32,000 nucleotides of DNA from Trichodesmium erythraeum IMS101 (GCF_000014265.1 NC_008312.1:1830001-1862000), one strand, 5' to 3'. Positions 5,886 through 32,000 are shown, numbered from the stretch's first letter. The notes: generated from the letters alone by a model not told the origin. A program made the numbers and translations.

Positions 5886-5897
5886 AAATCATTGTTG

Positions 5898-9092: not shown

Positions 9093-9152
9093 AAAGAGTT
9101 AGCACTTAGGTTTTTTTTGCTTTACCTTTGTAGTTTAAGTAGGTCGGTGTTT

Positions 9153-11067: not shown

Positions 11068-11221
11068 ATGGCCAGGAGTATATGGAGTAATTTTTGAGGC
11101 TTTTATAGTTAAATAAGTAGTTCCATGAATGTGGAAGAGAGCTTGTGTTGTAATGGAAAATGGGAAAATTTATTTCTCCTAAATGGTGAGAGAAGTTGTT
11201 GAATAAGTTGGAGTTAGTCTG

Positions 11222-11413: not shown

Positions 11414-11439
11414 CTATGGGAATTGCTATAACAGAACAA

Positions 11440-11960
11440 CAAGGAGTAATTTGTCTTATTTTAAGATTATTGAAAAAACATCAACTAATTCTAGTAGGGG
11501 ATAGGGATTTTTATAGTATACATTTATTATTTGGTTTGAAAGATTATTGTCAAAAACATCTATACCTTTGCATTTCAAAAAAATAAATCAAACCTAAATT
11601 AAGGGTGTTAGTAAATATTGTAAGCTAGAGCAATTAAAAGTAAACTTTGGGTCGATTTTTTTTTAATTAAAAATTTGCCAAAATAAAGAAGGTCTTGATT
11701 GACAATTTGTTGATATATAAAAAGCGCTAAATTAACCAAAAAATCTATCATAAATCTGGTATATTATTAGTGATTTATCGTCATCAGATACAATTAATAA
11801 AGTATATAGTCAAAGAATGGTCATTGACGTCATGTTCAAAGATTGTAAGAGTTGAATTTACAATCTTGAAGAAAAAAAAGCAAATGAAGCTAGATTAAAT
11901 AATTGAATTTTACTAATAGCTATTTCTTGCACAATTAGTTCATTTAAATAACAAAAAAAA
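11440..11960 (+). mobile_element. IS4-family transposase fragment (pseudogene)
   Basis: LILVGDRDFYSIHLLFGLKDY matches the second-D region. Later, in shifted frames, it reads IYKKR...W..L(V)IY...YSQRMVIDVMFKDCKS-stop-IYNLEEKKANEARLNN. This resembles the Y-R-x-IE-x-FKD-x-K-x-GGYNLE block. The sequence is heavily decayed. Confidence 0.5.
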
Positions 11961-12289
11961 TAAAAATAAAGGCTTCAAAATATATATCAAAAAGGAATAA
12001 AAGAGGTAGGATATAGAGAAGGTATAGTAATTTTTGGATTAGATTATATGGTGTTTCTTAGACATTTTATTATAATTTTATTCAAGAATGGGTAGAGAAT
12101 TTAATGATCCGAAATTTTTATAAGTTACTTTATTATCGAAAAGTAATTAAAGCTATGTCAAAGATTAATACTATTTTTCAAAAATAATGCTATTAGGTAT
12201 ATGTAAAAAAATTACTTATTCATATATGCGATCGCTAAAACTACCATTATTGATAACTGGCTTACCCAGCCGGAACAGACTAATTAAAA

Positions 12290-13260
12290 TTATTAATTAT
12301 ACCTACTTTTTCTAAAGCTTCAATGATGAACTACCATCCTGTTAATTAAGCTAAAAAATCCTGGTTAATATTTAGTAGAATTTCCTTAAATCTTTTCTAA
12401 AAAGGTCTGATAAATATCCCAATATTATCCACTTCAGTTTTTGTTTTATTGCTAACCATAACCTCTCTATCAGGTTAAATTCCGGACAATAACTTGGTTG
12501 AAATATGAGAATAATATTATCGGAATTATTAAGTTTAATGATTGATAATATCCAGAATTATCTACTTGAATTATATGTAAATAATTAGGGTAATTATGGG
12601 AAAATATTTCCCAGCAAAAATCGTTTAAATTACTCAACTTATAGAAAAAATTTTTCCATGAATTTGCTTCGATTTAACCCATATAAACACAAATATTTAT
12701 ACTCCCATTGTTTAGTTCCTTTACCCTTGATTCTTTTAAGATTTATTACTTTTCCTGTAATAGTTTTTAATCCCATTCTAGTTTTATAACTACACCAGAA
12801 CCTAATTTTTTTCAGGATTTTTCCTGGCATTAAAATTTTTTAATAGCTTTTTATAGGAGTTCTGACATTTTTTTACTATTCAAAATCTGTTGGATGTTGT
12901 TGAATACTCACTGGACTAGGCACTTTAAATTTGGCATTTTAGTGCTCATAAATATATCTATGTACTGTTGAGTATGGTAGATTAATATCACACACTACTT
13001 TTAACTATTTTTGTATTTCATTATCACTATTAAAACCTTCTAATTATTCTAGTTCAGCTCTAAGTATATTTTTTAATATTGGTGATATTTTTTTCAGTTT
13101 ACCAACAATTTTTTTCTTGTTCAATAAACCTTCTATACTCAATTTTGTTTAGGTAGCAAACTATTGTGATAGAGTTGTACGATGACATCCTAATAACATT
13201 AATATATATTCAATAGTATCTGCCGGAATAATATTTCTTGGAGTTCTTCAACCGATTCCA
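12290..13260 (-). mobile_element. Second IS630-like (DDE_3) transposase pseudogene
   Basis: The minus-strand translation has an HTH-like part (...INLPYSTVHRYIYEH). It is followed by MPGKILKKIRFWCSYKTR...WEYKYLCLYGLN, then IIQVDNSGYYQSLNLIIPDNIILIFQPSYCPEFNLIERLWLAIKQKLKW. The last block is the DNAxxHKS...PPYSPELNPIERxW signature, here with stops. Confidence 0.55.
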
Positions 13261-13453
13261 GAATATCTATTTTAACAAGACACACCATATTATTCACTGT
13301 TTTTATTTTTATTTAAGTAAAGTCTTGCTTTTGATAAATAGTATTATACTCTCTACAATTGTTAATTTTTTTATGATTAATTAAAATTAGTAAAAGTGAC
13401 CTTTTTTCTAATGTTTTTAGCTATTACAGTTGAACTATTGTTCAATGCAGTGG

Positions 13454-13490
13454 GGGTGTAGTGTAAGTGGAGAGGGCTTACACTACACCC
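13454..13490. repeat. Perfect 14-bp inverted repeat (hairpin) with a 9-nt loop
   Basis: gggtgtagtgtaag tggagaggg cttacactacaccc. Confidence 0.8.
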
Positions 13491-13559
13491 TATTATTTAT
13501 ATCAATAGGGATTTTATTTTAATTGAAGTATTATTCAGTCCCTAAAGGCCAATTCTTTT

Positions 13560-14145
13560 CTACATATGGCTTTCAACTAGCTTGTCACCCCGTGAGGTCA
13601 AAAATTTCTTTAACGGCATCAGACTCCGAGCTATTGAAAGAATAACTGGTATTTCTCTGTTGGACAGTGCTTAACTGGGTACGACTTGCTACAGCACAAA
13701 TTTCTGAAAAGAACATAGAAATTCCTGAAACTGCTGAAATTTGCTCACGCTTGATGAACTACAAACTTTTATAGGCTAAAAAAAACAAAGTTTGGGTCTG
13801 GAGTGTTGTAAATAATCAAATGCCAGGAATTTTTAAGCTTGTTATTTGTTATTGGCTGCGCTGTTACCTTCACAATATTGTGACAGATGATTCAAAGTTG
13901 GACTTATTTTCTTTCTATTAATGATGACTACAAGGTTTATACTTACTTAATTGAGGATTGCGATCACAAGGTCAATAAAACAGCCATGACCAGAGTAGAA
14001 GGAGAAAAATGCCGTCGTTGCTACTACTTAACTAGGTTACATCGTAAAACTTTATGCTATTCCAAATCAATTGATATGTTATGCAAGTCAATTGTTTGCT
14101 GATCTATTATTTGAAACATCGGCACGTTCCTCAATTCTCTTTATC
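13560..14145 (+). mobile_element. IS1-family transposase pseudogene fragment
   Basis: Translation reads ...RAIERITGISLLDSA-stop-LGTTCYSTNF, then DELQTFIG-stop-KKQSLGLECCK. ORF 13887-14102 reads ...DDYKVYTYLIEDCDHKVNKTAMTRVEGEKCRRCYYLTRLHRKTLCYSKSIDMLCKSI. This matches the conserved IS1 InsB C-terminal region (TRVEGxNxRLRHYLxRLxRKTLCYSKS). Confidence 0.6.
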
Positions 14146-14522
14146 ATTCGTAATTGTGCAAAGCTAAATAAAATGTAGAAAAGTTTTTGAGAAATGGTAT
14201 TAGTTTTTGATGTTTTAATTTCAGGCCCAAAACAAAAATATAACTAATGCCAACCACTATCAGATTAAAGACTTCAGGCATTTATCTTCATATCAACTTT
14301 TCTTTTTGCAAGATGTAAGTTTCCCTGTTTACCTCCCACATTTTCTTTAATCCCTAAAATATATAAATTATTAATTATTCGGTAATCTAGGTTCCTTCAA
14401 GTCACTGAGTTACAGTTGTTTTTTCTGTTTTCTATTCCCGGCAAATTGCGCCCTTACTACTCCTTACAGCAAAAAATAACTTAAACTAGGAAGAAGTAAA
14501 TATTCATAGTAATTCATTTTCT

Positions 14523-17486: not shown

Positions 17487-17492
17487 TATCAA

Positions 17493-17563
17493 CAGGACTT
17501 ACGCAATAATTTTGGATAGCTATCTCAAGCGTCTTAAACTACAACAATAATAGGTAAGTCCTG
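17493..17563. mobile_element. Miniature inverted-repeat unit carrying the same termini as the 1.1-1.4 kb elements
   Basis: caggacttacgcaat...(about 50 nt)...aggtaagtcctg starts 7 nt after the M16 protease stop codon. The 10-bp arms caggacttac and gtaagtcctg are perfect complements. Confidence 0.55.
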
Positions 17564-18018
17564 TAATAGTCTTTTGGTTTCTGGTTAATACATTTCTGCT
17601 ATTGTTACCAAAAGCTATGTCATCGTTTACCTAAAAAGGTCAAATCTAATTTTAAGTTAACCAAACAACGTTTGAATCTCCCAGGGATGAATATAATCTT
17701 GAATTACACTTGCCCCTGGGAGATCGCTAACTACCATTAACAGTTGCTATTTGTGCCAAGTTGATATTTCTCTAAATACAGCTTAGATAAATAAAGGGAT
17801 AAATTTAATTCTGGCTTCATAGCAATAAAAGTGGTAATTTATAAGTTGTTTGTAGTCAACTAATCTCCCAAATATTCAGGTTTCATAGAGATTATGGTTT
17901 AAGTACTATAAACTTTTTCCTATTCTATAAGTCAAGCTTTTTGTCCTGTACTTAGGAAAGTAAATCTTTTTAAGAAGTTCCACACGCTCTATCCCACAAA
18001 CAATATGATTTTTTTGAA

Positions 18019-19443
18019 CAGGAATTACTCGAAGACACTATATAAGTGTATATGCTTGCCAAGAGAGATAGAATTACCTGAGCTTTTGCGAACACTAATT
18101 TTTTTTAAGGGATATAGCTGCCATAGTTCCTCCCCTAGTGCTGAACAACAAAATCATCATAACTAATACAAAGATATGTTCTTTAAATTGATTTTAGCTC
18201 TATATAGATGTGGCAAATGGTAAAGATTTTTTGCTAAAATACCTGGATTATTGTATAATAATATTATTGTTAATTTGAGCCAACAATATAAATTTTAAAT
18301 ATATTAATTATAGTTAATAATTACTCAATTTTTATACAAATTATACGGTCAAAATTTTTAAAAAATTACCAAAAAATGTTAGCTGTGACATGATAAGTAA
18401 TCATTTAAAAAAATAAAAAAATGATAATCATAAATAAAAAAAATGTTGGCAAAATATAACTTATACAGAAGCTTATTTGATATTTTATTATCTTTTTTAA
18501 CAAAAAATATAGTAATAAAACTAACTTTTTTTCGTCAACAGTATAGTAGTAATGAGTATCAAGTAGTTTGTGGTGTATGAATAGCAAACTTTATATCTTT
18601 TAAGCTGAAATCGAAAATTTTGGCTCATAGGTTATCGAGTTTATGACCCAGATACTGAGAAAAAAAACCAATATATAAAAATATAAAATAAATAATTTTA
18701 TACGTAATAAATAATAACAAATTACTATTTAAGATTGTATTAATAGATAATTTTTATAGGACAAAAAGAGCAATAAAATTGATAGATAATATGGAAAAAT
18801 TTATTATTGCCTCTGCAAATAAATTGTTATCTTCGATAATACTGGTAGTATATAAAAATATAAAATTATAGGATAATTGATTTAGAATAACTTAGAAAAA
18901 ATATTATGTAAAATAATTCAAATTAAAAGAATTATTTTGAGTTCAAAAAAAAGTCAAGCTATCATAGAAAAATATTTATCCTAAATTCAGCAGAATATAT
19001 TGTCACTAATCATTTCAGTCAATCTTCAGTATATACTGTATAATCTGAGTCACAAACTAAATCTAATATCGAATAAATTATCCCCAGAATTAAGAAATTA
19101 AACGCAATTAAATTTTGTCAATTTCGTCGATTACAATATAAAAAAACCACATAGTTTTTGCTATTTTAGTCTGGAATTTATCAAAAAAATTAACAGTAAA
19201 AATAGGAAAAAATATTGATGAAGTTAAATACAAATTACTCTCAGATTATTTTCTTCAATAGTTAAAAAAATCTCACAATAAAAATCAGGGATATTTTTAT
19301 TTTATAGGTGCTTTAACCCTTGTTTTAACAATGGCAAAAATCTTAAGGGGGTTGTTAAACTTTTAGGCGATCGCGAAGGTTCAGCTCCTTATATTGCTAT
19401 CGGCAAGAATACGCCCTTATGTAGCTTCTTTGTGTAAATCCTG
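18019..19443. mobile_element. Non-autonomous TIR element, copy 2 (about 1.4 kb, more diverged)
   Basis: The left end caggaattactcgaagacactatataagtgt and right end atacgcccttatgtagcttctttgtgtaaatcctg match the copy 1 ends. Shared internal blocks include gatatagctgcca...gaacaacaaaat, aaatt(t/c)agcagaatatattg and ttttgt...aaaa(t/c)cac.t.gttt.tgctat. There is no credible ORF. Confidence 0.5.
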
Positions 19444-19483
19444 AAAGTATTAAATCCTTATTCTTTTATTAAGTTAATACTCT

Positions 19484-20875
19484 CTAATTTTTCTGAATAC
19501 CATAACAAAGCCGAGCAAGTACTATTGGATTATTTTCCATCAAATCATTTGTTAGACTTTTTAAACCCTGTAAAAAGTGTTCCAAATTATGAGTTTTTGA
19601 ACCGTCATTTTCGCAATCACGATCCTCACAGTTCCAATTCTGCCACCAATCTTGTTCTCCCAAACCATTAGCGACTACATCAACTTTGAATAAATAAATA
19701 TTTGCTTGTGGTAATTCATTAGGTTTAATTGTATTTGTATAACTTAAATCACGATTTTTGCCTACTTCCCAATTACTAAATTGCATTGAATTGAAGAGTT
19801 TTTTTGCCATTATAGCCTCTGAAGAAATGAATTCTGTTGTTGACTCATCAAAATATTTACTTTCACTAATTTTAGCTTTTATAGAATTAGCTGATGGTGG
19901 CAATGTATACTCATTTAAAATCGGCAAATTAACCTTGTATTCAATTGGTATTTCTTTTGAGAAATTGGGGATTATTTCTAACAATTCAAATTCTTTACGC
20001 TTCGGGAATTCGATCGCTACTTTACCATTATTAAGAGAGAAGGGTCGCTTCAGACCTGATATTGGTTCGCCTGGGTTTTTCAATTCACTCATGACCGATA
20101 AATCATTTATAATATTATTAGGTGAAAAGATTGTAAATTCACTGTTTTTAATTAATTCTCCTCCATCCCGCTTGAGTTTTTCAAAGTAGTAGAGAATATG
20201 TTTGTAGGGACCTAAAAATATCACATAAAAAGGCCGAAACTTTTCTATTGGTTTCCCTTCAGTGTTATAAGGAAAGTTAAAGTTATCTCTATTGCTACCA
20301 ACAACATAAACTTTTCCATTAAATTCACTTCTAATTGCTAAAATACCTGCTGCATATCCTTCTTTATTAAGATAATGTTGTCTAATTTTTTTGTTGACTG
20401 CAGTGACATCGCCTTGATTTTGATACAAATCTGTGATCAGAACTAAAAGTTCTTTTCCTTCCTTTTGTGGTGCAATAGCACCTGTTAGATTACTTGTGAC
20501 TCGATCTTCGTAGTAAAACCTCTCTTTTATTGCTTCTAGGAATTTTGAACGACTGATTTTTTGTTTCTCCGGCCCTCCAACACGATAGTATTCAACTAAG
20601 TCAGATATAGAAAATGTGCGGTCTAGCAGTTGTATTGTTTTTATATAACGACTAGCACCGTTAGTTAAATATCCCGGCATAGATTCTGAGCCATCTATAT
20701 TAAGGCTAATATTAATTGGGCCTGGTGGGGCATCCAATGAGGGAGACTGACCTTTCGTCAAAGGTACATCACAAGATAGATCGTTGTAAGTTTTTGGTCT
20801 ACAGGCTGTTGTGATACCTATTAGCATGAATAATAGAAGGGGAATTTTCCATCTTGTAATTTTTGTTGAATTCAT
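19484..20875 (-). CDS. Predicted lipoprotein with vWA-like (MIDAS) domain and an uncharacterised C-terminal half
   Basis: 463 aa. The signal peptide has a lipobox (LLLFMLIGITTAC). It has the MIDAS DxSxS motif (NIDGSESMPGY). Later NLTGAI and LLVLITDLYQN strands are typical of the vWA fold. It is the last gene of the minus-strand cluster. Confidence 0.7.
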   Translation of the reverse strand: MNSTKITRWKIPLLLFMLIGITTACRPKTYNDLSCDVPLTKGQSPSLDAPPGPINISLNIDGSESMPGYLTNGASRYIKTIQLLDRTFSISDLVEYYRVGGPEKQKISRSKFLEAIKERFYYEDRVTSNLTGAIAPQKEGKELLVLITDLYQNQGDVTAVNKKIRQHYLNKEGYAAGILAIRSEFNGKVYVVGSNRDNFNFPYNTEGKPIEKFRPFYVIFLGPYKHILYYFEKLKRDGGELIKNSEFTIFSPNNIINDLSVMSELKNPGEPISGLKRPFSLNNGKVAIEFPKRKEFELLEIIPNFSKEIPIEYKVNLPILNEYTLPPSANSIKAKISESKYFDESTTEFISSEAIMAKKLFNSMQFSNWEVGKNRDLSYTNTIKPNELPQANIYLFKVDVVANGLGEQDWWQNWNCEDRDCENDGSKTHNLEHFLQGLKSLTNDLMENNPIVLARLCYGIQKN

Positions 20876-21087: not shown

Positions 21088-22776
21088 TTAACTTTCTTTT
21101 GTCTGATTTTCATTTTCAGAGTTATCCTCATCTTTTAACTTCCTAGATTCAAATTTTAATACTCCCAATTCTAAAACTTTCCACTTACCTCTATCTTCTG
21201 TAGGTTCGACTTTTGCTAGCTTCAGTAATTGAAACTTCTTCAACTCCCCTGACGAATCTCCATAACATTCAAATAAACCTTGTACATCTTCATTATTATC
21301 TGGGTTAATGTTGGCCTTCTGTCTGGGAGCTAAATAGTCACCGCTTTCCTCCGATAATATCCAGTAATTTCCGAATCTCTTTTTTTCCAAAATAACTGTA
21401 TTGCTACTATCATTGACTTTTGCAACAGTTGTAGGTTTTTTCGAGCGCCAGCTCTGACTGCTATTGTAAAGCTCTACAAAATTAGCTTCTTCAGGTGGTA
21501 GCGGTGGCAGAATTCTTGTTGGTTCTGGTGTTGGTTCTGGTGTTGGTTCTGGTGTTGGTTCTGGTGTTGGTTCTGGTGTTGTTTCTGGTGTTGGTTCTGG
21601 TGTTGGTTCTGGCGTTCGTTCTGGTGTTGGTTCTGGTGTTGGTGTTGGAGTATCTGAGGATGACATTTTTATCTGTATCCACTTAACTATACCAGGCTCG
21701 GACAACTGCCAACTTTTACCTAAATTAATTGGAGATACTTTAGCGGGTTTTAGGAGTAATAGTTTACTAGAGTCTTCCTGGAAACTGGAAGATTCAAATA
21801 ATCTAGTAAACATTTGTTTATTAAATTGATTAAGTTTGATATGTTGTTTAGGAATTAGATAGTTGTCACTTTCTTGGGATATTATCCAATAATTTCCCCG
21901 GCGGTTAGTTTCAAATACTACTTCCTGAATGGATTGATTCATACTTGCTTCTGTTTCTGAGACTGTTATTGCTATTTCTAATAATGAATCTGGACTTGCA
22001 TTATAAGTTGCTGCTAACTCAGCTTCTTGCCAACTTAGATTGAGACCTATTGGCGATGGGGGTGGTGATATTTCTTTTGGGGAGGAAGATTGTTTAATGT
22101 TATCTAGCCTTTCTGTTAAGGAACTAACTTGTTGAGAAATTATTTCTAAGAGTTCGTCTTGACTACTCTCTTGAGACAATTTTTTCCAACACTTTTGCAA
22201 ATTTGTTTCTATGGTTGATAACTGAGATTGAATACGCACTCCTACTTGCTCGTTCAAATTTTCCAATATTTCTAGCAACCCAGACTCTAGATTTTCTGCA
22301 GGATAGATTTGTTGGGATAATTGTTCTAAAACCTTCTGCAAATTTGTTTCTATGATCAACAACTTAGATTTTTGAACCTCCTGTTCTTGATTTCCCGCTA
22401 CAACTTGCTTAGTTAAATTATTCAACTTTTCTGCTATTTCTGGCGATCGCTCTTTTTGAGACTCCTGTAATTCTGTTTCCAGTTGATTGTGCTTTTCTGT
22501 GTAATCATCCAATTTTGATTTCATCTCCCTTCCCTCTTGTTGAGATTCCTGAAATTCTGTTTGCAGTTGATTGTACTTTTCTGTATAATCATTTAATTCT
22601 GATTTCATCTCCCTTCCCTCTTGTTGAGATTCCTGAAATTCTGTTTCCAGTTGATTGTACTTTTCTGTATAATCATTTAATTCTGATTTCATCTCCCTTC
22701 CCTCTTGTTGAGATTCCTGAAATTCTGCTTGCAGTTGATTGTACTTTTCTGTATAATCATTTAATTCTGATTTCAT
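21088..22776 (-). CDS. Coiled-coil repeat protein with two copies of the cluster-specific C-terminal module (downstream part of a gene interrupted by an in-frame TAA)
   Basis: 562-aa ORF. It has 28-aa tandem repeats (MKSELNDYTEKYNQLQAEFQESQQEGRE). The shared module occurs at 21679-22005 and 21151-21468, separated by a (PEPT)n linker. It lies in the same frame as ORF 22807-23136. Confidence 0.7.
   Translation of the reverse strand: MKSELNDYTEKYNQLQAEFQESQQEGREMKSELNDYTEKYNQLETEFQESQQEGREMKSELNDYTEKYNQLQTEFQESQQEGREMKSKLDDYTEKHNQLETELQESQKERSPEIAEKLNNLTKQVVAGNQEQEVQKSKLLIIETNLQKVLEQLSQQIYPAENLESGLLEILENLNEQVGVRIQSQLSTIETNLQKCWKKLSQESSQDELLEIISQQVSSLTERLDNIKQSSSPKEISPPPSPIGLNLSWQEAELAATYNASPDSLLEIAITVSETEASMNQSIQEVVFETNRRGNYWIISQESDNYLIPKQHIKLNQFNKQMFTRLFESSSFQEDSSKLLLLKPAKVSPINLGKSWQLSEPGIVKWIQIKMSSSDTPTPTPEPTPERTPEPTPEPTPETTPEPTPEPTPEPTPEPTPEPTRILPPLPPEEANFVELYNSSQSWRSKKPTTVAKVNDSSNTVILEKKRFGNYWILSEESGDYLAPRQKANINPDNNEDVQGLFECYGDSSGELKKFQLLKLAKVEPTEDRGKWKVLELGVLKFESRKLKDEDNSENENQTKES
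21514..21657. repeat. 12-bp microsatellite-like repeat encoding a (T/E)P-rich PEPT linker
   Basis: ggttctggtgtt is reiterated about 10 times. On the minus strand it encodes TPTPTPEPTPERTPEPTPEPTPETTPEPTPEPTPEPTPEPTPEPT. Confidence 0.9.
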
Positions 22777-22938
22777 CTCCCTTCCCTCTTGTTGAGATTG
22801 CTGAAATTATGTTTGCAGTTGATTGTACTTTTCTGTGTAATCATCTAATTCTGATTTCAATCGCGATCGCTCTTGTTGAGATTGCTGAAGTTCTGCTTGT
22901 AACTCTTCATATTTGGCCCTCAATTGTTTTAGCTGAGA
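22435..22938. repeat. 84-bp tandem repeat array (4 near-identical core copies plus diverged flanking copies) inside a coding sequence
   Basis: tttcatctcccttccctcttgttgagattcctgaaattctgtt(t/c)(g/c)cagttgattgtacttttctgtataatcatttaattctga starts at 22519, 22603, 22687 and 22771. Diverged copies start at 22435 and 22855. Confidence 0.9.
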
Positions 22939-23136
22939 TTCCTGTTTCTTTAGAACGTGCAACTTTTGTATCGCCCACTTTTCTACTTTTTGAAGAGCGT
23001 CGGACGAACTAAACCCCGAACCTTCAAGAACTTCATCGCCACTATTGGAATAAAGCCTTAAATACCAACCGCATTTGAGACAAAAATTCACCTGTTGCTG
23101 TTGATATTCTGTATTGCAAACCGGACAATTTGGCAT
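22807..23136 (-). CDS. Zinc-ribbon plus coiled-coil N-terminal part of the interrupted repeat protein
   Basis: 109 aa. MPNCPVCNTEY...NFCLKCGWYL is a CPxC...CxxCG zinc ribbon. The ORF ends in repeat sequence ...LKSELDDYTEKYNQLQT-TAA. The TAA at 22807-22809 replaces the GAA found in sister repeats. Confidence 0.7.
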   Translation of the reverse strand: MPNCPVCNTEYQQQQVNFCLKCGWYLRLYSNSGDEVLEGSGFSSSDALQKVEKWAIQKLHVLKKQESQLKQLRAKYEELQAELQQSQQERSRLKSELDDYTEKYNQLQT

Positions 23137-23301
23137 TAGTTATCTTTCCATTTATAAATTTACTTCAATCTACAAACCACTGTTCCTCTTTACTCAGATA
23201 TAATACATCTTCTCATTTTCCCTCTCGTTTTGTGGTAGTAGCTGGTTCTATAGATATGTGAAACTTTACTTGCGGGTCTATCGTTGTAGTCGATGCAGAT
23301 A

Positions 23302-24318
23302 TTATGGACTATTTCGTAGCCATCCTCCAAACAGACTAACAAGCTCTTTGATTGGCCTCAACTCTCCTTCCAGCAGTCTTTGCAACTCCTCTTTGAGTTT
23401 TAATATTTGACTATTAATTTTGTTAATTTCTGCTCCTACCGCTTTTAAATAAGTAGTATTGTTTTTCTGCTTATGAGTTATTTCTTGCAACTGATAGATG
23501 TTATTAATTTCACTTTCTTCTAGTTTTGATAATTGAGACTGCAACTGCACCAACTTCTCACTTAACTCAGACTTCAATTGTGCCAACCTCTGAAAATAAT
23601 CGGCCTCCAAATTAGAACATCGTTGCTCCTGGAGCGCCCCTGCCTGTTCCAACCGTTCTAAACGCTCCGTCAAATTACTCCGCCAGCGATCGCCTTCCTC
23701 CAACTTGGCCAAAGTCTTCTGTAAGCGATCGTAAGCCAACTCTGCCACCTGAGAAGCAAAGCGATCGCGCTCGTCCCTGGCCAACCTCAACTCAGATTCC
23801 AGTTTTTCTCGCTCCTCCTTTACTCCTTCCAGTTCCGACTGTAGCCGAGATAATTGAGAATTACCACCAAAATCTAACACCCCCCGCTCCTCCAACCGCC
23901 ACTGATCTCCCCCTGGCGTCAGAGAAACCTTAGCCAGTTTAACCAGGATAAACTCCCGCGCATCCTCTGAAAGAGAACCATTGAACTTGAACAAAGATTT
24001 AACAGTATCCTTGTTAAAAGAATTAATTCGGAAATTTGCTTTAGGTAATAACCAGTAACATCCCTTCTCCGTAACCATTACCCAATAATTCCCATTTCGC
24101 TCTTCACCGAGCAAAACTTCTGAATTAGAATATCTCCATCCCCTAAAGTCAATTTTTGAAACCTTAATAGCCTTTCTTGAGAGAACCCTCGGCGCATAAT
24201 TATAAGCTTCGATCAATTCATCTTCAGACAAACTTATCCAACCCCGTGGGAGAGTTTCCAGGGTTTTCGTCACCCGCACCGAGTTAGTTAATTCTGAGGA
24301 ATAATTATCTGGTTTCAT
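23302..24318 (-). CDS. Permuted paralog: shared module at the N-terminus followed by a coiled coil
   Basis: 338 aa. The shared module lies at 23869-24204 (YNYAPRVLSRKAIKVS...NGNYWVMV...LFKF...ILVKLAKVS...WRLEERGVLDF). The C-terminal coiled coil ends QKNNTTYLKAVGAEINKINSQILKLKEELQ...LRPIKELVSLFGGWLRNSP. That tail is homologous to the middle of the 27687-28649 protein. Confidence 0.75.
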   Translation of the reverse strand: MKPDNYSSELTNSVRVTKTLETLPRGWISLSEDELIEAYNYAPRVLSRKAIKVSKIDFRGWRYSNSEVLLGEERNGNYWVMVTEKGCYWLLPKANFRINSFNKDTVKSLFKFNGSLSEDAREFILVKLAKVSLTPGGDQWRLEERGVLDFGGNSQLSRLQSELEGVKEEREKLESELRLARDERDRFASQVAELAYDRLQKTLAKLEEGDRWRSNLTERLERLEQAGALQEQRCSNLEADYFQRLAQLKSELSEKLVQLQSQLSKLEESEINNIYQLQEITHKQKNNTTYLKAVGAEINKINSQILKLKEELQRLLEGELRPIKELVSLFGGWLRNSP

Positions 24319-24402
24319 TGTTTTTTTATGATATATAGCCTTTTTTACTGGTCAAATATTATCGAGTTTATTTAACGAAATTTCAATATATTTTACTACC
24401 TA

Positions 24403-25686
24403 TTAATCAAATTGTAGTATACCACGTTCGACAAGCTGCCAAGTTTCACCTTTTGAAATAGCAGATACTTTGGCGGGTTTTATTAGTTGAAACCCGGAGT
24501 ATTCAGGTCGGTATCCCTGACATTCAAATAAATTTGCAACTGTCTTACTGTTATATTCATTAATTTTGATGTTATGCCTAGGAACCATGTAATCAATATC
24601 AGCCTCATTTAGTATCCAATAGTTTCCTCTGCGAACTTTCTGAATAATTACTGCTTGAGTGCTACTTATACGAGGTTGAACCATGCTTCGGTCTGCTTCT
24701 GAGACCTCTATAGCATTTTCTGATAAAGAACGGGTATCTTCTTTATATATTAACATAAACTCAAGATTGGGCAAACCTCCAGCTATATTATCTGGAGTCT
24801 TTAGTTGCTGATTTTGTTGGGGCTGGTTTATTTGATTTGGTAGGTTCCTTAATTCAATATCCAATCTTTTACGAATTTCTTGTTGTAATTGCCCATGAAT
24901 TTCCTCTTTCACTGCTTCAAAAATCAGCTTTTTATTATCGGCATTGTTGTCTGAAGTCTTTAGTTGCTGATTTTGTTGGAGCTGGTTTATTTGATTTTGT
25001 AGGTTCCTTAATTTAATATCCCATCTTTGATCAATTTCTTGTTGTAATTGCCTATAAATCTCCCCTATTTTATCATTTACTACTTGAACAATCAACTTTT
25101 TATTATCGACATTATTACCTGGAGTCTTGACTTGCTGATTTTGTTGTAAATAGTATATTTGACTTTTTATTTTTTTCGTTTCAGCATCCCATAATTTAGA
25201 CATTTTTTCTAATTTATAATAAGCATCTTCTACTTTATAGTCTACTTCATAAACAAGTTCTTGAGTATCTAAATTACTGGGTTTATTAACAGCATTATTC
25301 TGTTTTATCTGCCATATTAATAGCGAAATATAAAACAACAATAAGACTGTGAATAGTACTAATAGAATGAAAGAAAATATCACTGTTCTTCGTATATTCT
25401 TAAACTGATTTAATTGATTAAAAATTGCTTGTTTTTCATAGTTTAAATTCTTAATTTCTTCCTCATTGTTATTAGCTATAGCGGCTAATTCATTGTTTGT
25501 TTTTTGAACATCATCAAAGCTGTTCTTTAAATTTTCCTGATCTGGATTTAAAGGAATTGATGTTGTCGAAGTACTAGGTGGTATTTCTGGCTCTAGTTGT
25601 ACACAAGCCACGAAAGAACCAGATATTAATACCAAAGACAGCAATAAACTGTATGTGCTTTTCCAACTGTGTATGCTTTTCCACAT
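24403..25686 (-). CDS. Lipoprotein-signal / TM / coiled-coil protein with shared C-terminal module
   Basis: 427 aa. It has the lipobox signal MWKSIHSWKSTYSLLLSLVLISGSFVAC. An internal TM helix reads TVIFSFILLVLFTVLLLFYISLLIW. There are Q/N-rich repeats of about 55 aa. The shared module lies at about 24403-24744 (RRGNYWIL...LFECQGY...LIKPAKVS...WQLVERGILQF). Confidence 0.8.
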   Translation of the reverse strand: MWKSIHSWKSTYSLLLSLVLISGSFVACVQLEPEIPPSTSTTSIPLNPDQENLKNSFDDVQKTNNELAAIANNNEEEIKNLNYEKQAIFNQLNQFKNIRRTVIFSFILLVLFTVLLLFYISLLIWQIKQNNAVNKPSNLDTQELVYEVDYKVEDAYYKLEKMSKLWDAETKKIKSQIYYLQQNQQVKTPGNNVDNKKLIVQVVNDKIGEIYRQLQQEIDQRWDIKLRNLQNQINQLQQNQQLKTSDNNADNKKLIFEAVKEEIHGQLQQEIRKRLDIELRNLPNQINQPQQNQQLKTPDNIAGGLPNLEFMLIYKEDTRSLSENAIEVSEADRSMVQPRISSTQAVIIQKVRRGNYWILNEADIDYMVPRHNIKINEYNSKTVANLFECQGYRPEYSGFQLIKPAKVSAISKGETWQLVERGILQFD

Positions 25687-25866
25687 AAAAACTCACTTTT
25701 TTCTTCAAAATACATCCCCATAATAAGGTTTGTAAACCCTTATAGCACTGTTCCAAAATTAGTATTTTGGGAGAAGTCTAATAAACGAACTAATAAACTA
25801 TCGTATCCTTTTCACTGCGCAATTATCTAACTGAGAATTGACTTCCCCAAAAGGTTCCATTGCCCA

Positions 25867-27660
25867 TTAATAAAATTGCAGTACTCCAAGTTCTACAAGC
25901 TGCCAAGTTTCACCTCTGGAAATAGCAGACACTCTCGCTGGTTTTATCAGTTGAAACCCGGAGTATCCAGACCTATATCCCTGACATTCAAATAAATTTT
26001 TAACTGTTTCCAAGCTATGCTCGTTAATCTTGATGTTATTTTTAGGAACCATGTAATCAACCCCACCCTCGTTTAATATACAATAGTTTCCCCTGCGAAC
26101 TTTCTGAAGAATTGCTCCTTGACCGCCACCGAGACGACGTTGGTCAATGCTTTGTTCTGTTTCCGAGACCTCTATAGCATTTTTTAACAAAGAACGGGCG
26201 TCGTGCTGATACATTGATATCAATTGCAGATCTGACGACCCAAAATATTGATGGGTAGGTATTTGTGGGTTCATTTGAGGTACTGGTGTTACTTGGCTAG
26301 TTAAATGATTGGTTGTTATTCGAGATTCTCTGTGAACTCCAGCTACATTGTCTGAAGTCCTTAGTTTCTGATTTTGTTGGAGCTGGTTTATTTGATTTTG
26401 TAGGTTCCTTGATTCAATATCCCATCTTTGATCAATTTCTTGTTGTAATTGCCTATAAATCTCCCCTATTTTCTCATTTACTACTTGAACAATCAACTTT
26501 CTATTATCGACATTATTACCTGGAGTCTTGACTTGCTGATTTTGTTGGAGATAGTATATTTGACTTTGTATTTTTTTCGCTTCATTCTCCCAGATTTTAG
26601 ACATTTTTTCTAATTTATCATAAGCATCTTCTACTTTATCGTCTACTTCATAAACAAGTTCTTGAGTATCTAAATCACCAGTTTGATTAACACCATTATT
26701 CGGTTGTTTGGTATTTGTATAAGCTTTGTTATATCTTTTCAAAAGCAGCTTTATTCTCCTCCAATCTTGCCAAATATAAACACATAAACCACTTAAAAAT
26801 ACAGCTATTACCAGCACTATTATGACAACAAATGTCTCTAATTTTAGTCTACTTTGAAACTGATTTAATTGATTATAAATTTCTTGTTTTTCAGAGTTTA
26901 AATTCTTAATTTCTTCCTCATTCTTCTTAGCTATAGCGGCTAATTCATTATTTCTTGCTTCCAAATCAGCTATTTTTCTAGCCAATTCTTTGTCATCATC
27001 TTTATCGAGGGTAACAGATGAAGGTAAACCAGTAACTTGACCAAGATCGATAATTTTAGCTTTTAGCTGTTTGCTGTTTTCTGTCAATGACTCATTTATT
27101 TTACTTTGCGTATCTGGACCTAAGCGTCCAAAATAAGATACTTCCGGATTTGTAATAATCTGCAAATTTAGTTGGACTTCACCAATTTTGTCTTTGCCTA
27201 ATCCACCTTTTAATTTTTCAGTTATTTCTTTAATGTTACTAATATTTTGATTTATGCTATTAAAATTTTGCTCTAAATTTTCTTGATTTCTTATTTGCGA
27301 AATTTGATTTTTATACGTATTAACTTTTTCTTCCAGTTGTATTAGTTTTTCATTAACCTTAGAACTATTTACTGATTCCCTATTTTTGGAACCCTCTCTT
27401 ACTGCAGCAATGTCCTTAATAAAATCGTCTAATAATGTTTGAAATTCATCGTTTGTTTTTTGAATATCATCAAAGCTGTTCTTTAAATTTTCCTGATCTA
27501 AATTTCCCTGATCTGGATTTAAAGGACTTGATGTTATCGAAGGACTAGTAAGTATTGTGTTTGGATCTGTTTGTACACAAGCCACTAAAGAACCAGACAT
27601 TAATACCAAAGACAGCAATAAACTGTATGTGCTTTTCCAACTATATATGCTTTTCCACAT
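25867..27660 (-). CDS. Lipoprotein-signal / long extracytoplasmic coiled coil / TM / coiled-coil protein with shared C-terminal module
   Basis: 597 aa. Its N-terminus is nearly identical to the previous gene (MWKSIYSWKSTYSLLLSLVLMSGSLVAC). About 240 aa of coiled coil precede the TM helix FVVIIVLVIAVFLSGLCVYIW. The same Q/N-rich repeats follow. The shared module lies at 25867-26211. Confidence 0.8.
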   Translation of the reverse strand: MWKSIYSWKSTYSLLLSLVLMSGSLVACVQTDPNTILTSPSITSSPLNPDQGNLDQENLKNSFDDIQKTNDEFQTLLDDFIKDIAAVREGSKNRESVNSSKVNEKLIQLEEKVNTYKNQISQIRNQENLEQNFNSINQNISNIKEITEKLKGGLGKDKIGEVQLNLQIITNPEVSYFGRLGPDTQSKINESLTENSKQLKAKIIDLGQVTGLPSSVTLDKDDDKELARKIADLEARNNELAAIAKKNEEEIKNLNSEKQEIYNQLNQFQSRLKLETFVVIIVLVIAVFLSGLCVYIWQDWRRIKLLLKRYNKAYTNTKQPNNGVNQTGDLDTQELVYEVDDKVEDAYDKLEKMSKIWENEAKKIQSQIYYLQQNQQVKTPGNNVDNRKLIVQVVNEKIGEIYRQLQQEIDQRWDIESRNLQNQINQLQQNQKLRTSDNVAGVHRESRITTNHLTSQVTPVPQMNPQIPTHQYFGSSDLQLISMYQHDARSLLKNAIEVSETEQSIDQRRLGGGQGAILQKVRRGNYCILNEGGVDYMVPKNNIKINEHSLETVKNLFECQGYRSGYSGFQLIKPARVSAISRGETWQLVELGVLQFY

Positions 27661-27686
27661 GATAACTAACCTCTTAGTTCAATAAA

Positions 27687-28649
27687 TTAACCAATAAATT
27701 CCAGTTTCCCTGGCTCGGACAGTTGCCACTTTTCTTCTCCAATAGAAGAAACTTTAGCAGGCTTTAATAGTTCAAATTTACCCTTAGATCCTTCACTATT
27801 GACACCTTGACACTCAAACAAATTTTTCAGAGTATCGATGCTATATTCATTAATCTTTATTGTATCGCTAGGAACTAAATACTGCGAACTACCTTGTTTT
27901 AATATCCAATAGTTGCCCCGGCGCTTTTTTTCCAGAACTGATTTACCAATACCTAAACGACTGTTATCAATACTCTCTGTTGCTGCTGAAACAGTTATCG
28001 CATTTTGTGATAAAACAGTACGTTTTTCTTCGTCCTTGTAGTCTTTTAACAACTGTTCTTCTTCACTCAGAGGTAATTGATATTTTCCTTCCTCCTCTAC
28101 TTCTCTGGTGGTATTTAGTTCTGTAGATGTTTGCAACTTTACTTGCGGGTCTATCGTTGTGCTCAATGGCAGATATTCTGGATTATTTTTGAACCATTCT
28201 CCAAACAAACTAATCAACTTTTTGATAGGCCTCAACTCATCTTGGAGTTTTGAGATCTCATTATTAATTTGGTTAATTTCTTCTCTTCCTGCCTCTAAAG
28301 AAGCAGTATTGTTGTTCTGCTTCTGAATTAGTTCTTGCAACTCCTCTTGGAGTTTTGAGTTCTCATTATTAATTTGGTTAATTTCTTCTCTTTCTGCCTC
28401 TAAAGAAGCAGTATTGTTGTTCTGCTTCTGAGTTAGTTCTTGCAATTGAGATTTGAACGATTCTAACATTTGAACCAATTGCTCTTTTATGTTATGCTCC
28501 CAAGTTGCAGCATGTGCTGATGTTTCTCTAATATTTTCAAACCCTTGAGGTTTATCGCCAGTTAAACTATCATGCAGAGCATAACCACAATTCCGACAAA
28601 AATTATCGCCCTTGTTTACTTCAGCCTGGCACTGTGGACAGTTACTCAT
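27687..28649 (-). CDS. Zinc-ribbon / coiled-coil protein with shared C-terminal module
   Basis: 320 aa. The zinc ribbon is MSNCPQCQAEV...NFCRNCGYAL. A 2 x 35-aa repeat (105-bp period, 28241-28450) is present. The shared module lies at 27687-28040. An AAGGAG Shine-Dalgarno sequence sits upstream. The next gene starts only 26 nt downstream. Confidence 0.8.
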   Translation of the reverse strand: MSNCPQCQAEVNKGDNFCRNCGYALHDSLTGDKPQGFENIRETSAHAATWEHNIKEQLVQMLESFKSQLQELTQKQNNNTASLEAEREEINQINNENSKLQEELQELIQKQNNNTASLEAGREEINQINNEISKLQDELRPIKKLISLFGEWFKNNPEYLPLSTTIDPQVKLQTSTELNTTREVEEEGKYQLPLSEEEQLLKDYKDEEKRTVLSQNAITVSAATESIDNSRLGIGKSVLEKKRRGNYWILKQGSSQYLVPSDTIKINEYSIDTLKNLFECQGVNSEGSKGKFELLKPAKVSSIGEEKWQLSEPGKLEFIG

Positions 28650-28961: not shown

Positions 28962-30110
28962 CTACTTACCTGCCCACTCCTTAGCTAAAACATGTAATAA
29001 AGCCTTCAGCCCCATAATAAAAGGCGGTTCCACACGAATATCATCCGTTTCTCCCTTCATATTCAACAAAACATTTGTCAACTCCCTCTGGGTATTTCGC
29101 CAAAGAGTCTGGTTATAAGTAGATTCTGGTTCTGCCCCTGGCTCGTTCCCCAGTTCATAATCCTGTAGCGGGAGAATTTCCTCAATCTCCAACTCCTTCA
29201 AAGATACATGAAAATCATCTAGAAACGTTCTTAACTGTACTAAATCAGGAATTTTTAACTCCCGAATATTTCCCTCAAACTCCAAGCGTTCTCTCCAGTT
29301 GATGGGATTACCATTAATTTCACAATCCTCTCCTGCAATCAACGGATCTTTAGTTTTCCTCCCTAATCCTGTCAACTTAGTACGACCCAAGACCAAACCA
29401 CAAGCTACCTCGTCTTTTGGTCTCTGACTCAATCTCGTTTTTTCCAATATGCGATCATCAAATCCAGAGCCTTTAGTCAACATCTGACTCAGCAGCTCGT
29501 TAACTTCCGAAGAAGGAAGAAATTTACCCCTTTCAGCTAACCAGTTTAACAATCGAGAACCATTTCCGCCAATATAAACAGGAGTAATTTCGCGACTCTT
29601 GTATTTTTCCTCTTGTTCAAGAACTCCCAAGATTGTCCCCACATAGTAATACAATCCCCCCATACCAATTGCCATCAGCCGGAGCAAACCTTGAAACTTC
29701 GGATCGTCCTCTGCAAAATCCCTTTTATTCTTCAGCCACTTTTCACTTTCCAGGCGTAGAAATACATCCAGCTTGGCACTAAACTTGTCTTCAGTTAATC
29801 GATCCCAGTCTTTCAAATTCTGCTCGAATAGCTGGGAGAAAAAATTTGGATTCAATTCTAAAAAATTCGACAACAAATGACGACCAGCCAATAAAACCGA
29901 ACATTGATGAATGAGCTCGTTGTTGTACCAAACCGAAATATCTGAAGTTCCACCTCCCATATCAATACAAGTTGTTCGGATTAAATCATGTCTTTCCTGG
30001 TCTGCAAAATATTGAGCGATCGCCAAACTCTCAGTTTTGAATAAACCTACATCATCTGACTGCGGGCAAATGTGTGTAATTCCAGTTTGAGCTTGAAGTT
30101 CCTCCGTCAA
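28962..30110 (-). CDS. C-terminal two-thirds of the Hsp70/actin-fold (ASKHA) ATPase core; continuation of the upstream ORF after an in-frame TAG
   Basis: 382 aa from a TTG codon. TCIDMGGGTSDISVW is the phosphate-2 motif. VYIGGNGSRLLNWL is the adenosine motif. ESLAIAQYF occupies the position of EPTAAALAY. It lacks its own phosphate-1 motif, which lies in the upstream ORF. Confidence 0.7.
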   Translation of the reverse strand: MTEELQAQTGITHICPQSDDVGLFKTESLAIAQYFADQERHDLIRTTCIDMGGGTSDISVWYNNELIHQCSVLLAGRHLLSNFLELNPNFFSQLFEQNLKDWDRLTEDKFSAKLDVFLRLESEKWLKNKRDFAEDDPKFQGLLRLMAIGMGGLYYYVGTILGVLEQEEKYKSREITPVYIGGNGSRLLNWLAERGKFLPSSEVNELLSQMLTKGSGFDDRILEKTRLSQRPKDEVACGLVLGRTKLTGLGRKTKDPLIAGEDCEINGNPINWRERLEFEGNIRELKIPDLVQLRTFLDDFHVSLKELEIEEILPLQDYELGNEPGAEPESTYNQTLWRNTQRELTNVLLNMKGETDDIRVEPPFIMGLKALLHVLAKEWAGK

Positions 30111-30116
30111 ATCTTG

Positions 30117-32000
30117 CTAAGTCTTCGCATACCTATTTTTATCACGACGAGAAAAAGCCGTAGGATAGGAAATACACCACTGAATTTGTTTGACTCCTTC
30201 CTTGGCGGCAACCGCGCTTACATGTAAGGCTAAATGTTTCAAAAACAATTTGTTAGGATGGTAATTTTTCCACTTCAAGTCTGTTTCTATCCATCCCCTG
30301 AGCGGTTCAAACCTGTTGCGATCAGGAATATATATCCTGCCATCAATAATTGGGAAATCTAGGTTTTCCGTCTTATTTGGCTTCCCCCTAGTTGTCAGCA
30401 CGCTAGACAAGGGTAACGGTTTGTCAGTCGGGATAAAGCTTTCCGGGACAAAGTATTCAAACAATACAGGCCTGCGGGTTTCTGTCAAAACCTCCGTCAC
30501 CTTCAAGTGCAAATTTTCCAACTTCAATGGCTCCGATAAACCGTTACTATTGACATAGATATTGGTGAAAGAAGTGCCGAAATCTACCCCCACTTTCCAT
30601 CGTTCTCCCAGCCTAATTTTCTCTGGACTTTTCAGCAGAATCAAGCCAATGGGACTTCCAGAACTATCCTGACACTCAATGAAACTAGGAAATTCTTCTA
30701 GGTGAGTTATTTGATAAGCACCCCTACCATCTATAAAAGGATGACGATCTTTCGCTTCCGGTAGAAACACTTGAAAAGTATCCTCTCCAAATTCAGCATC
30801 GTAATAAAAAGCATAATAAGAGCGCCATCCATCCGCCAGGAAATTAGGCCATACTTCCAATACCGGAACTTCCGGCAAAGCATTTTTATCTTCTATGGGA
30901 TAATCTTTGGAAATCCGATAATTCTGAGGTTGCCGAGGGTCATCTTTCATCCCTGACAAAGGCAAGTCCAGGGTTACCCGCACTTGAGGTCCATCACTAC
31001 TATTTATTTGAGCAAACTCGACCTTAGCGATTAAATCTTCCGGAGTAAAATAGTCGAGAAGTATAGGATTGATAGGTATCAGGGGCGTAATACTTTTACC
31101 CTGAAAAATTAACTTCGTCCCCGGAGGTAGGAAAGCTCCCGGTAGAGCATCTTCTTGGTCTACAAACCGAAATTCTTCCATAAATAAATCCTTGGACTCC
31201 TTCCACTCAACATCTGGCCAAGTAATTTTCTTTTCACGCAAGTCTTGTATTTGTAGGGAAGCCAGAGTTTGCTCCTCGTGTATCCAAATATCTTGAGGCG
31301 GTTTTCCCCAAGCTGAAGAAATGTTCTGGTCAATAATCAATAGAGGTTTTACCTGCCCCTTATTCTTACTAGGAACTAAGCGAACCCAAGAAGACTGAGC
31401 CTCAGCTTTCACCGGACGATTAATACCTTCCAACACCCCTCGATTAATGGCCACACCAAAAAACTGAGGATTATTGCTCAAACTCAGGCCCTGGTCCATT
31501 GGGCGAGGCCCCAAACTATTTTGGAAGTCATCTAGCAATCCGCCGATCGCATCAATTGCCTCTGCTTGGCCCTCATAGGAAGTATCGCCTAAAATTCCCC
31601 GCAAATTTTCTAACCAGCGCCAGAGGAGAGCCTTCTCGCTGACATTGAGATGTGGTTGAGGAGACTCCAACTGACCCGTCAGTTTGTTCCACCAAGGCAA
31701 GCCATTCCATTTTCCTTCTTCAGAGGGGGCCACTATAGTACTAGGAGTAGTAAGACCCACAAGTATACCATACCACAGAAATATATAAATGTCTTGCCAG
31801 GGATTTTTGGTTTCTAAGGCATACAGGGCATTAACTGGATCCGGTAGCAGTTCGTATAGAGAACGGGCGAAAGGATTTTGGTCTTTTTCTAGCCCCAAGT
31901 CTAAAAATTGAGCAGTTATGGGAAAGCGGCGTACTTCTGCCAAAGCAACCGCCGCCAACATCCCCTGCCACTGTTGGACCATTTTATCTCGGATGGGATA
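30117..32000 (-). CDS. N-terminal extension plus the phosphate-1 part of the same Hsp70/actin-fold ATPase; 5-prime end probably outside the window
   Basis: The track ORF is 621 aa. RWKVGVDFGTSFTNIYV is the phosphate-1 motif (about 30570-30590). QWCISYPTAFS is the Hsp70 VITVPAYF equivalent. More than 460 preceding residues have no motif I recognise. The frame stays open (YPIRDK) from the listed Met at 31982 to position 32000. Confidence 0.7.
   Translation of the reverse strand, partial: YPIRDKMVQQWQGMLAAVALAEVRRFPITAQFLDLGLEKDQNPFARSLYELLPDPVNALYALETKNPWQDIYIFLWYGILVGLTTPSTIVAPSEEGKWNGLPWWNKLTGQLESPQPHLNVSEKALLWRWLENLRGILGDTSYEGQAEAIDAIGGLLDDFQNSLGPRPMDQGLSLSNNPQFFGVAINRGVLEGINRPVKAEAQSSWVRLVPSKNKGQVKPLLIIDQNISSAWGKPPQDIWIHEEQTLASLQIQDLREKKITWPDVEWKESKDLFMEEFRFVDQEDALPGAFLPPGTKLIFQGKSITPLIPINPILLDYFTPEDLIAKVEFAQINSSDGPQVRVTLDLPLSGMKDDPRQPQNYRISKDYPIEDKNALPEVPVLEVWPNFLADGWRSYYAFYYDAEFGEDTFQVFLPEAKDRHPFIDGRGAYQITHLEEFPSFIECQDSSGSPIGLILLKSPEKIRLGERWKVGVDFGTSFTNIYVNSNGLSEPLKLENLHLKVTEVLTETRRPVLFEYFVPESFIPTDKPLPLSSVLTTRGKPNKTENLDFPIIDGRIYIPDRNRFEPLRGWIETDLKWKNYHPNKLFLKHLALHVSAVAAKEGVKQIQWCISYPTAFSRRDKNRYAKT

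Follow-up and report, generated by a model that had tools for sequence, protein, structure and literature searches.

The stretch of DNA considered here, which we refer to as the window, comprises 32,000 nucleotides (nt) of Trichodesmium erythraeum IMS101 (GCF_000014265.1, NC_008312.1:1830001-1862000), and all positions are counted from its first nucleotide. Between positions 21,088 and 28,649, five adjacent genes on the minus strand (genes A to E) encode six copies of a module spanning ~115 aligned columns, which we provisionally name the GNYW module (Table 1). The genes directly follow that of a large ATPase and are themselves followed by a lipoprotein gene. All six module stretches are open in frame upon translation and alignment, and when the whole window is translated in six frames and searched with a profile, these six copies and no others are recovered, with domain E values of 4e-42 to 3e-61. 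The other copies are 36 to 53% identical to copy 1, and the six-copy alignment holds 16 invariant columns, including R-x-G-N-Y, P57, L-F, L-x-K-x-A-x-V, W105, E109, and G111. Copies 1 and 5 match one another in BLASTP at E=1e-25, and even the most divergent pair (copies 4 and 6) does so at E=1e-19; as such, the six homologous copies that a preliminary description of the window had proposed from a hand alignment lie where it had placed them, and their similarity holds under statistical alignment. The hand-drawn consensus is right only in outline: copy 2 reads GNYC in place of GNYW, and copy 6 lacks the AI-x-VS segment.

Table 1. Module copies, module genes, and flanking genes in the window (aa, amino acids; TM, transmembrane)
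Feature	Position (nt)	Strand	Description
Module copy 1	27690-28040	-	C-terminus of gene A; profile domain E=1e-50; query for both AlphaFold models
Module copy 2	25870-26211	-	C-terminus of gene B; GNYC in place of GNYW; profile domain E=3e-61
Module copy 3	24406-24744	-	C-terminus of gene C; profile domain E=1e-59
Module copy 4	23869-24204	-	N-terminus of gene D; N-type (NGNYW, YWLLP); profile domain E=5e-43
Module copy 5	21679-22005	-	Internal in gene E; profile domain E=2e-47
Module copy 6	21151-21468	-	Near C-terminus of gene E, followed by acidic tail; profile domain E=4e-42
Gene A (320 aa)	27687-28649	-	N-terminal Zn ribbon, coiled coil, ELRPIK motif, linker, module
Gene B (597 aa)	25867-27660	-	Signal peptide (..LVAC), external coiled coil, TM, cytoplasmic coiled coil, module
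Gene C (427 aa)	24403-25686	-	Shorter paralogue of gene B: signal peptide (..FVAC), TM, coiled coil, module
Gene D (338 aa)	23302-24318	-	N-terminal module, coiled coil, C-terminal ELRPIK motif
Gene E	21088-23136	-	Zn ribbon, coiled coil, module, PTPE-repeat linker, module
Cluster lipoprotein (~465 aa)	19484-20875	-	Signal ..ITTAC; DGSES...ITD motif
Actin/Hsp70-fold (ASKHA) ATPase	28962-32000	-	~1,085 aa in orthologues; 5' end beyond window

As previously described, the module is the sole element common to all five genes, and one gene has two copies (gene E) while another has its copy at the N-terminus (gene D). Zn ribbons, signal peptides with TM segments, and the ELRPIK motif each occur in subsets of the genes. 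The Zn ribbon of gene A matches PF13240 (Zn_Ribbon_1) at E=2.5e-6, over the Pfam cut-off. The signal peptide of gene B is of the lipoprotein type, and hydropathy scans place a single TM helix at residues ~270 to 295 of gene B and at residues ~98 to 122 of gene C. Tandem repeats fall within the coiled coils of gene A (105 bp, 2 copies), gene C (159 bp, 2.2 copies), and gene E (84 bp or 28 aa, 5.4 copies, with fewer in the Trichodesmium assembly MAG_R02, our locus L001), as well as in the PTPE linker of gene E (12 bp, 10.6 copies). Gene E consists of two open reading frames (ORFs) in the same frame, at 22807-23136 (109 aa, encoding the Zn ribbon and coiled coil) and at 21088-22776 (562 aa), split by a TAA at 22807-22809 that lies inside a tandem repeat (22450-22899) whose consensus has GAA at this codon; the MAG_R02 orthologue is a single 599-aa ORF. 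The count of five adjacent genes therefore stands, with the amendment that the fifth is one gene broken by an in-frame stop. The second shared motif, ELRPIK-L-SLFG-W-(K/R)N-P, is located at 28140-28180 in gene A and at 23302-23360 at the C-terminus of gene D, and was seen beyond the window only in the gene A orthologue of MAG_R02 and in family members P0010 and P0142.

The order of segments in genes B and C (lipobox signal peptide, external coiled coil, TM helix, basic residues, cytoplasmic coiled coil, module) puts the module on the inner side of the membrane, and the Zn ribbons of genes A and E, such ribbons being cytoplasmic, point the same way. The cytoplasmic location suggested by the preliminary description is thus very probable.

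Beyond the window, the GNYW module defines a sizeable family. As a word-indexed search had returned only ~20 short fragments, we searched 1.84 billion representative proteins (clustered at 50% identity) exhaustively with a profile and recovered 961 clusters at E≤1e-3, of which 712 reach E≤1e-10 and 222 reach E≤1e-30. Every named member is cyanobacterial and is annotated as “hypothetical” or “uncharacterized” in RefSeq and UniRef, with representatives in Trichodesmium, Okeania, Microcoleus, Planktothrix, Merismopedia, Xenococcaceae, Stanieria, Sphaerospermopsis, and Gloeothece. Scans of the five window proteins against Pfam-A, NCBIfam, and PADLOC gave nothing over the module, only Zn-ribbon and coiled-coil matches (those to SMC, LmuB, JetC, and Filament being coiled-coil noise), and module profiles have no match among PDB sequences at E≤10; the family is as nameless against these libraries as it first appeared. 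Neither 95 nor subsequently 112 members yielded a recurrent Pfam family (WD40 occurs in 4, and matches are otherwise sporadic coiled coils or Zn ribbons), and no enzyme, effector, or toxin domain was found in 207 members scanned. We found no description of the module or its gene cluster in the literature. The module is an unannotated domain family and a candidate for Pfam/InterPro, and the gene cluster is apparently unstudied.

Two AlphaFold2 models, built from 13 sequences (predicted local distance difference test [pLDDT] score of 78.6) and from 69 diverse modules (pLDDT of 88.0, predicted template modeling score [pTM] of 0.80), agree on the succession of elements: helix, strand, helix, three strands, helix, and five strands. 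The “small, mostly beta” domain anticipated earlier is accordingly a real and compact one, but is modeled as mixed alpha/beta and strand-rich (3 helices and 9 strands). Foldseek returned no significant neighbor for either model, and the modeled fold is perhaps new.

Conservation within the module follows a distinct pattern. In 258 instances, conservation is highest at G111 (100%), F75 and W105 (98%), G42 (95%), P57 and F115 (94%), V17 (93%), and Y44 and A95 (90%): conserved positions are hydrophobic, glycine, or proline, none of the invariant residues is polar, and the median isoelectric point (pI) is 6.3. The lack of an invariant polar residue and the near-neutral pI suggest a folded binding scaffold rather than an enzyme or a nucleic acid binder. 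Among orthologues from the window, MAG_R02, MAG_R03, and Okeania, the module is 72 to 95% identical and mostly indel-free, whereas the remainder of the same proteins is 48 to 86% identical, is rich in indels, and holds tandem repeats (12, 84, 105, and 159 bp), a pattern that points to selection acting on the module.

Copies in 183 family members are predominantly C-terminal (167), with 75 at the N-terminus and 27 internal, and 78 of these proteins have two or more. The regions to which modules are joined consist of coiled coils, TM segments, Zn ribbons, and WD40 repeats, with no enzyme domain seen; TM-like segments occur in ~30% of full-length members and an N-terminal CxxC...CxxC motif in 16%. 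The N-terminal copy in gene D (copy 4) finds its best matches in seven other loci among copies that are likewise N-terminal, at 37 to 98% identity (41 to 51% in four distant loci and 37% in the Xenococcaceae locus L005); its nearest paralogue within the window is 37% identical. Because copy 4 is closer to N-terminal copies in the four distant loci than to the paralogues in its own genome, the N-type and C-type modules are old paralogues.

The module genes recur in a conserved setting. We examined 14 further contexts (four reference genomes, eight assemblies with family members, and two plasmids), of which 12 contain a complete cluster (L001-L004, L006-L010, L012, L013, and L015), in each of which tubulin-like and ATPase genes occur with a module array. 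The constant core encodes a ~160-aa protein with four hydrophobic TM helices (the 4-TM protein), a ~495-aa Tubulin_2-like GTPase, and the ~1,085-aa ATPase, usually together with the ~465-aa lipoprotein, and directly after the ATPase gene come four to eight module genes carrying 5 to 11 modules. In Xenococcaceae (L005) and Stanieria (L014), the module genes stand beside ATPase gene fragments only; as such, the ATPase gene or a remnant of it adjoins module genes in every context sampled (14 of 14 besides the window), in support of the previously proposed tie between the module and the neighboring ATPase. Since the ATPase gene in the window runs off the end at position 32,000, the tubulin-like and 4-TM genes of this cluster must lie just past that point.

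We tabulated array order for the window and 14 other loci, and find that it is kept across genera. The first gene of the array encodes a protein with Zn ribbon, coiled coil, and module in 10 of the 14 other loci (in the window, gene A is of this type), and the second a protein with a signal peptide/TM segment, TM helix, coiled coil, and module in 12 of them (as does gene B). Later genes specify two- or three-module proteins (gene E, for instance, or forms resembling gene D, whose module is N-terminal), and many arrays close with a ~710-aa module-WD40 protein. N-type and C-type modules occur together in 12 of 15 loci, the window being counted.

A DNA-level search of plasmids gave no match, but a search in protein mode found relatives on plasmids of Gloeothece and Picosynechococcus; no relative was found on viral contigs. 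The 47.5-kb, MOBP-mobilizable plasmid Cy782204 of Gloeothece verrucosa PCC 7822 (NC_014503.1; L010) holds the whole cluster, at 37627-47534 and 8-8020, that is, across the origin of the record; on the opposite strand after the cluster are a large WD40 gene and two TIR-domain genes. A plasmid of Picosynechococcus sp. PCC 8807 (L011, 8622-18969) has a distant version whose ATPase is 28% identical. On Picosynechococcus plasmids, genes after the ATPase gene have weak C-terminal module matches (E=5e-6 to 0.2), the last gene in L011 being an annotated TM2-domain protein that ends in one of these (E=5e-6). The presence of weak modules alongside a core at 28% identity is consistent with co-evolution of module and core. 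Among other neighbors, genes for Ser/Thr kinases or periplasmic-binding proteins sometimes adjoin the cluster, and in L005 (1-6403) a divergent operon encoding a genuine HSP70 (PF00012), GrpE, and TPR proteins lies beside the module genes and ATPase fragments.

Of the core proteins, the ATPase has its ATPase domain in the C-terminal half, with the invariant motifs DFGTS, DMGGGTSD, and GGNGS, which at the level of motifs make it a member of the actin/Hsp70 (ASKHA) superfamily. Its Pfam matches (FtsA and MreB) are weak and under the cut-offs, its best match among PDB sequences is FtsA (E=0.86), PF00012 is not matched, and a C-terminal Hsp70 substrate-binding domain is not recognizable. The GTPase (451 to 511 aa) matches PF13809 (Tubulin_2) in all seven orthologues tested (best E=3.7e-10; in L001, 35.5 bits against a cut-off of 27), three of which also match PF00091, and the Gloeothece protein is called “tubulin-like” by the Prokaryotic Genome Annotation Pipeline. 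Orthologues of the lipoprotein are found in the window, L001, L002, L004, L007, L008, L013, and on the Gloeothece plasmid (L010); the gene either trails the array, as it does in the window, or lies upstream of the core in divergent orientation. The motif in the lipoprotein resembles the MIDAS site of vWA domains, and D61, S65, and D149 are invariant; as the protein has no Pfam or PDB match at a permissive E value, we do not regard a vWA assignment as substantiated. Searches of PDB sequences with profiles of the ATPase, tubulin-like protein, and lipoprotein returned nothing significant.

Comparison of the module profile with the same three profiles uncovered no hidden module (hhalign P>0.2). 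A faint likeness (FIECQD..LLKSPE..W.V) in ATPase residues 510 to 547 is not significant (E=0.27), and a strong match to ATPase residues 1 to 280 proved to be an artifact of a fusion protein from Merismopedia in the alignment and disappeared upon its removal. This fusion (Merismopedia glauca, L013, 11618-14728) is a second ATPase paralogue in which an N-type module and a short coiled coil precede ATPase residues 279 to 1091, and its nucleotide motifs are degenerate (HFSTS, GGETSD, and GGYNSS), so it is probably an inactive, module-tethered copy of the ATPase. Other paralogues, including P0255 from Okeania (808 aa) and forms of 741 aa, lack residues 1 to ~277-340, and P0309 (1,364 aa, from a metagenome) has an N-terminal trypsin-like peptidase (PF13365). 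Given that paralogues lack or swap this part, ATPase residues 1 to 278 would constitute a separable N-domain that can be replaced by the module.

The cluster in the window is itself not intact. Its ATPase gene contains an in-frame TAG at 30117-30119 (minus strand), at the position of a Trp (TGG) that is invariant in 8 of 8 orthologues, and could be either a recent pseudogene or the product of a sequencing error; in MAG_R02, the gene C orthologue appears frameshifted. All modules in the window are intact and are 77 to 98% identical to those in MAG_R02. Either the clusters are decaying in Trichodesmium or the stops and the frameshift are sequence errors. Elsewhere in the window, regions 9093-14522 and 17487-19483 hold no ORF of ≥100 aa and lie between housekeeping genes (encoding an M23 peptidase, DapF, a tetrapyrrole methylase, a MobA-like protein, and a PreP/M16C peptidase); the G+C content falls to 22 to 27% in places, and Rfam and tRNA scans of the whole window gave no match.

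From this architecture, we infer that the module binds a partner in the core: on balance, it is probably a non-enzymatic, cytoplasmic docking domain that couples its carriers to the nucleoside triphosphatase (NTPase) core. Gene adjacency and the Merismopedia fusion make the ATPase the most likely docking partner; the tubulin-like GTPase and the 4-TM protein, both just as conserved and encoded outside the window, are real alternatives and may be equally good candidates. The preliminary description had also offered the module as a substrate of the ATPase, a weak reading for an ATPase with no recognizable Hsp70 substrate-binding domain. If the module does dock, array proteins would plug into the NTPase core by a module head, joined through a coiled-coil stalk of variable length to a far end that differs between them: in genes A and E a Zn ribbon, in genes B and C a membrane anchor whose outer coiled coil is periplasmic or lumenal, and in others a WD40 propeller or one more module. 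Two- and three-module proteins could cross-link core units, and the whole would form a membrane-tethered, nucleotide-driven scaffold.

Three points weigh against docking on the ATPase as just set out. The canonical core proteins contain no module, which excludes homotypic docking onto the core. In the fusion, the module replaces the N-domain of the ATPase, and the two can equally be read as binding the same third partner, such as the tubulin-like protein. Finally, in the window a stopped ATPase accompanies intact modules, indicating either decay of the cluster or a module function that does without an intact ATPase. As to the purpose of the system, a membrane-associated scaffold would fit both the conservation of subunit classes and the lack of enzymatic effectors, and agrees with the membrane remodeling predicted for FtsZl1 systems (PMC2875224); a regulated conflict system is the other possibility. 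A bolder version of the docking proposal, which we advance tentatively and hold to be possible more than probable, makes the module the new-fold, universal plug of an undescribed, cyanobacteria-wide, membrane-tethered machine in which GTPase and ATPase cooperate, as a scaffold or as a nucleotide-gated defense, with a fixed set of coiled-coil tethers attached (a Zn-ribbon protein, a membrane-spanning protein, multimodule cross-linkers, and WD40 proteins).

Docking on the core is not the only way to account for the module. Modules might instead bind one another, building a coiled-coil lattice by homo- or hetero-oligomerization with the NTPases confined to regulating it or helping it assemble: two- and three-module proteins are common (78 of 183 have at least two copies), the old N- and C-types that coexist in 12 of 15 loci could pair, and the canonical core is module-free. 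We nonetheless think this unlikely, as it does not account for why module genes so strictly adjoin the ATPase gene, why module and core diverge in parallel in Picosynechococcus, or why one module is fused to an ATPase paralogue, and oligomerization is already supplied by the coiled coils. That the module acts like a J-domain, recruiting and stimulating a divergent Hsp70-like ATPase that then remodels a cargo held by the variable part of the protein, is less likely still. The resemblance lies in the organization, with one small domain on many different proteins beside an Hsp70-fold ATPase, and module genes in L005 adjoin a genuine HSP70-GrpE-TPR operon; but the ATPase has neither the substrate-binding domain of Hsp70 nor a PF00012 match, the module has no invariant polar motif like HPD, tandem modules are atypical of J-domain proteins, and the conserved cluster includes no GrpE-like gene. 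Least probable is a sensor of a small ligand, lipid, or nucleic acid: nothing speaks positively for it, although a pocket is possible in a fold without assignment, whereas the absence of any invariant polar or charged residue from 258 instances, the near-neutral pI, the tandem copies, and the terminal position favor avidity between proteins.

The proposal that the cluster is a regulated conflict system (anti-phage or abortive infection), with the module as an effector-associated adaptor that would recruit variable sensor or effector proteins to an NTPase threshold switch, differs from these in addressing what the system as a whole is for, and it leaves room for docking as the mechanism. Several features invite it: the Gloeothece cluster is on a mobilizable plasmid near a WD40 gene and two TIR genes, the Picosynechococcus version is also plasmid-borne, the number of array genes varies (4 to 8), both the window and L001 contain inactivating mutations, and ATPase paralogues include one with degenerate ATP motifs and one with a trypsin-like peptidase. 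Tubulin/vWA and HSP70/GrpE themes are, moreover, part of the GTPase-centered conflict systems described in 2020 (PMC7159879). Set against this, no enzymatic or toxin effector domain is present in the 207 members scanned, PADLOC produced coiled-coil noise only, arrays keep their composition and order from genus to genus instead of being shuffled, the window cluster sits among housekeeping genes, and viral contigs hold no relative. Nor, judging from gene sets, are the defining components (paired TRAFAC-class DO-GTPases together with a GAP1 protein), or FNIII, apparent in the loci; once the genes conserved in the 12 complete clusters are assigned, none is left over that could encode a DO-GTPase or GAP1. 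All told, we rate a conflict system as rather improbable.

Four groups of known systems bear comparison with the cluster, the first two being the closest to it. Clusters of FtsZl1 (Tubulin_2, PF13809) with vWA genes have been predicted to remodel membranes, and one listed operon also encodes a giant HSP70 (Makarova and Koonin 2010, PMC2875224). The likeness extends to the PF13809 match of the GTPase, the presence of membrane-associated partners, and the occasional Ser/Thr kinase or periplasmic-binding-protein gene beside the cluster. The GTPase, however, is ~495 aa in length here versus 900 to 1,100 aa with a C-terminal coiled coil in FtsZl1, a vWA domain in the lipoprotein is only a candidate, and the constant features of this cluster (the ~1,085-aa ASKHA ATPase and the module array) are not described in PMC2875224. 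The FtsZl1 locus of Trichodesmium itself (Tery_1705-1709, PMC2875224) differs in make-up from the cluster in the window.

The GTPase-centered conflict systems covered by Kaur, Burroughs, Iyer, and Aravind (2020, PMC7159879) combine tubulin/vWA and HSP70/GrpE themes and possess effector-associated domains (EADs) deduced to be homotypic and structurally comparable to Death-like domains. Like EADs, the GNYW module is a small domain at the termini of diverse array-encoded proteins beside a constant NTPase core, and the systems further share a tubulin-family and an Hsp70-fold protein, WD40-type partners, and an apparently inactive paralogue of a core enzyme. The same EAD reportedly also sits in a core component, in contrast to the module, which is absent from the canonical core and carried only by the non-canonical Merismopedia paralogue. 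In addition, the module is modeled as alpha/beta (3 helices and 9 strands) and not as an alpha-helical, Death-like fold, enzymatic effectors were not found here, and the range is cyanobacterial, unicellular forms included. J-domain co-chaperones, too, attach one small domain to either terminus of many unrelated proteins that work with an Hsp70-fold ATPase, but the module has no sequence or predicted-fold likeness to them, no DnaJ match, and no HPD-like motif, and the ATPase has no substrate-binding domain.

The cluster is found in cyanobacteria of ecological importance (including Trichodesmium, Crocosphaera, Nostoc, Cylindrospermopsis, and Planktothrix). A single module profile finds every accessory subunit and defines constructs for work on interaction, localization, and structure, and the plasmid versions in the culturable Gloeothece PCC 7822 and Picosynechococcus strains open the question to experiment.

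Adaptors of bacterial cytomotive filaments, such as ParR-ParM, TubR-TubZ, and MamJ-MamK, are the fourth point of reference. They, too, are encoded in operons and connect an NTPase, whether actin-like or tubulin-like, with cargo or membrane, but they are single proteins that bind DNA or an organelle, and bacterial tubulin-like and actin-like NTPases usually act in separate systems. In this cluster, a dedicated ~115-aa domain is repeated over four to eight proteins and both types of NTPase are present together; a conserved operon pairing the two with adaptors of their own would, if true, represent a new prokaryotic cytoskeletal or conflict machinery.

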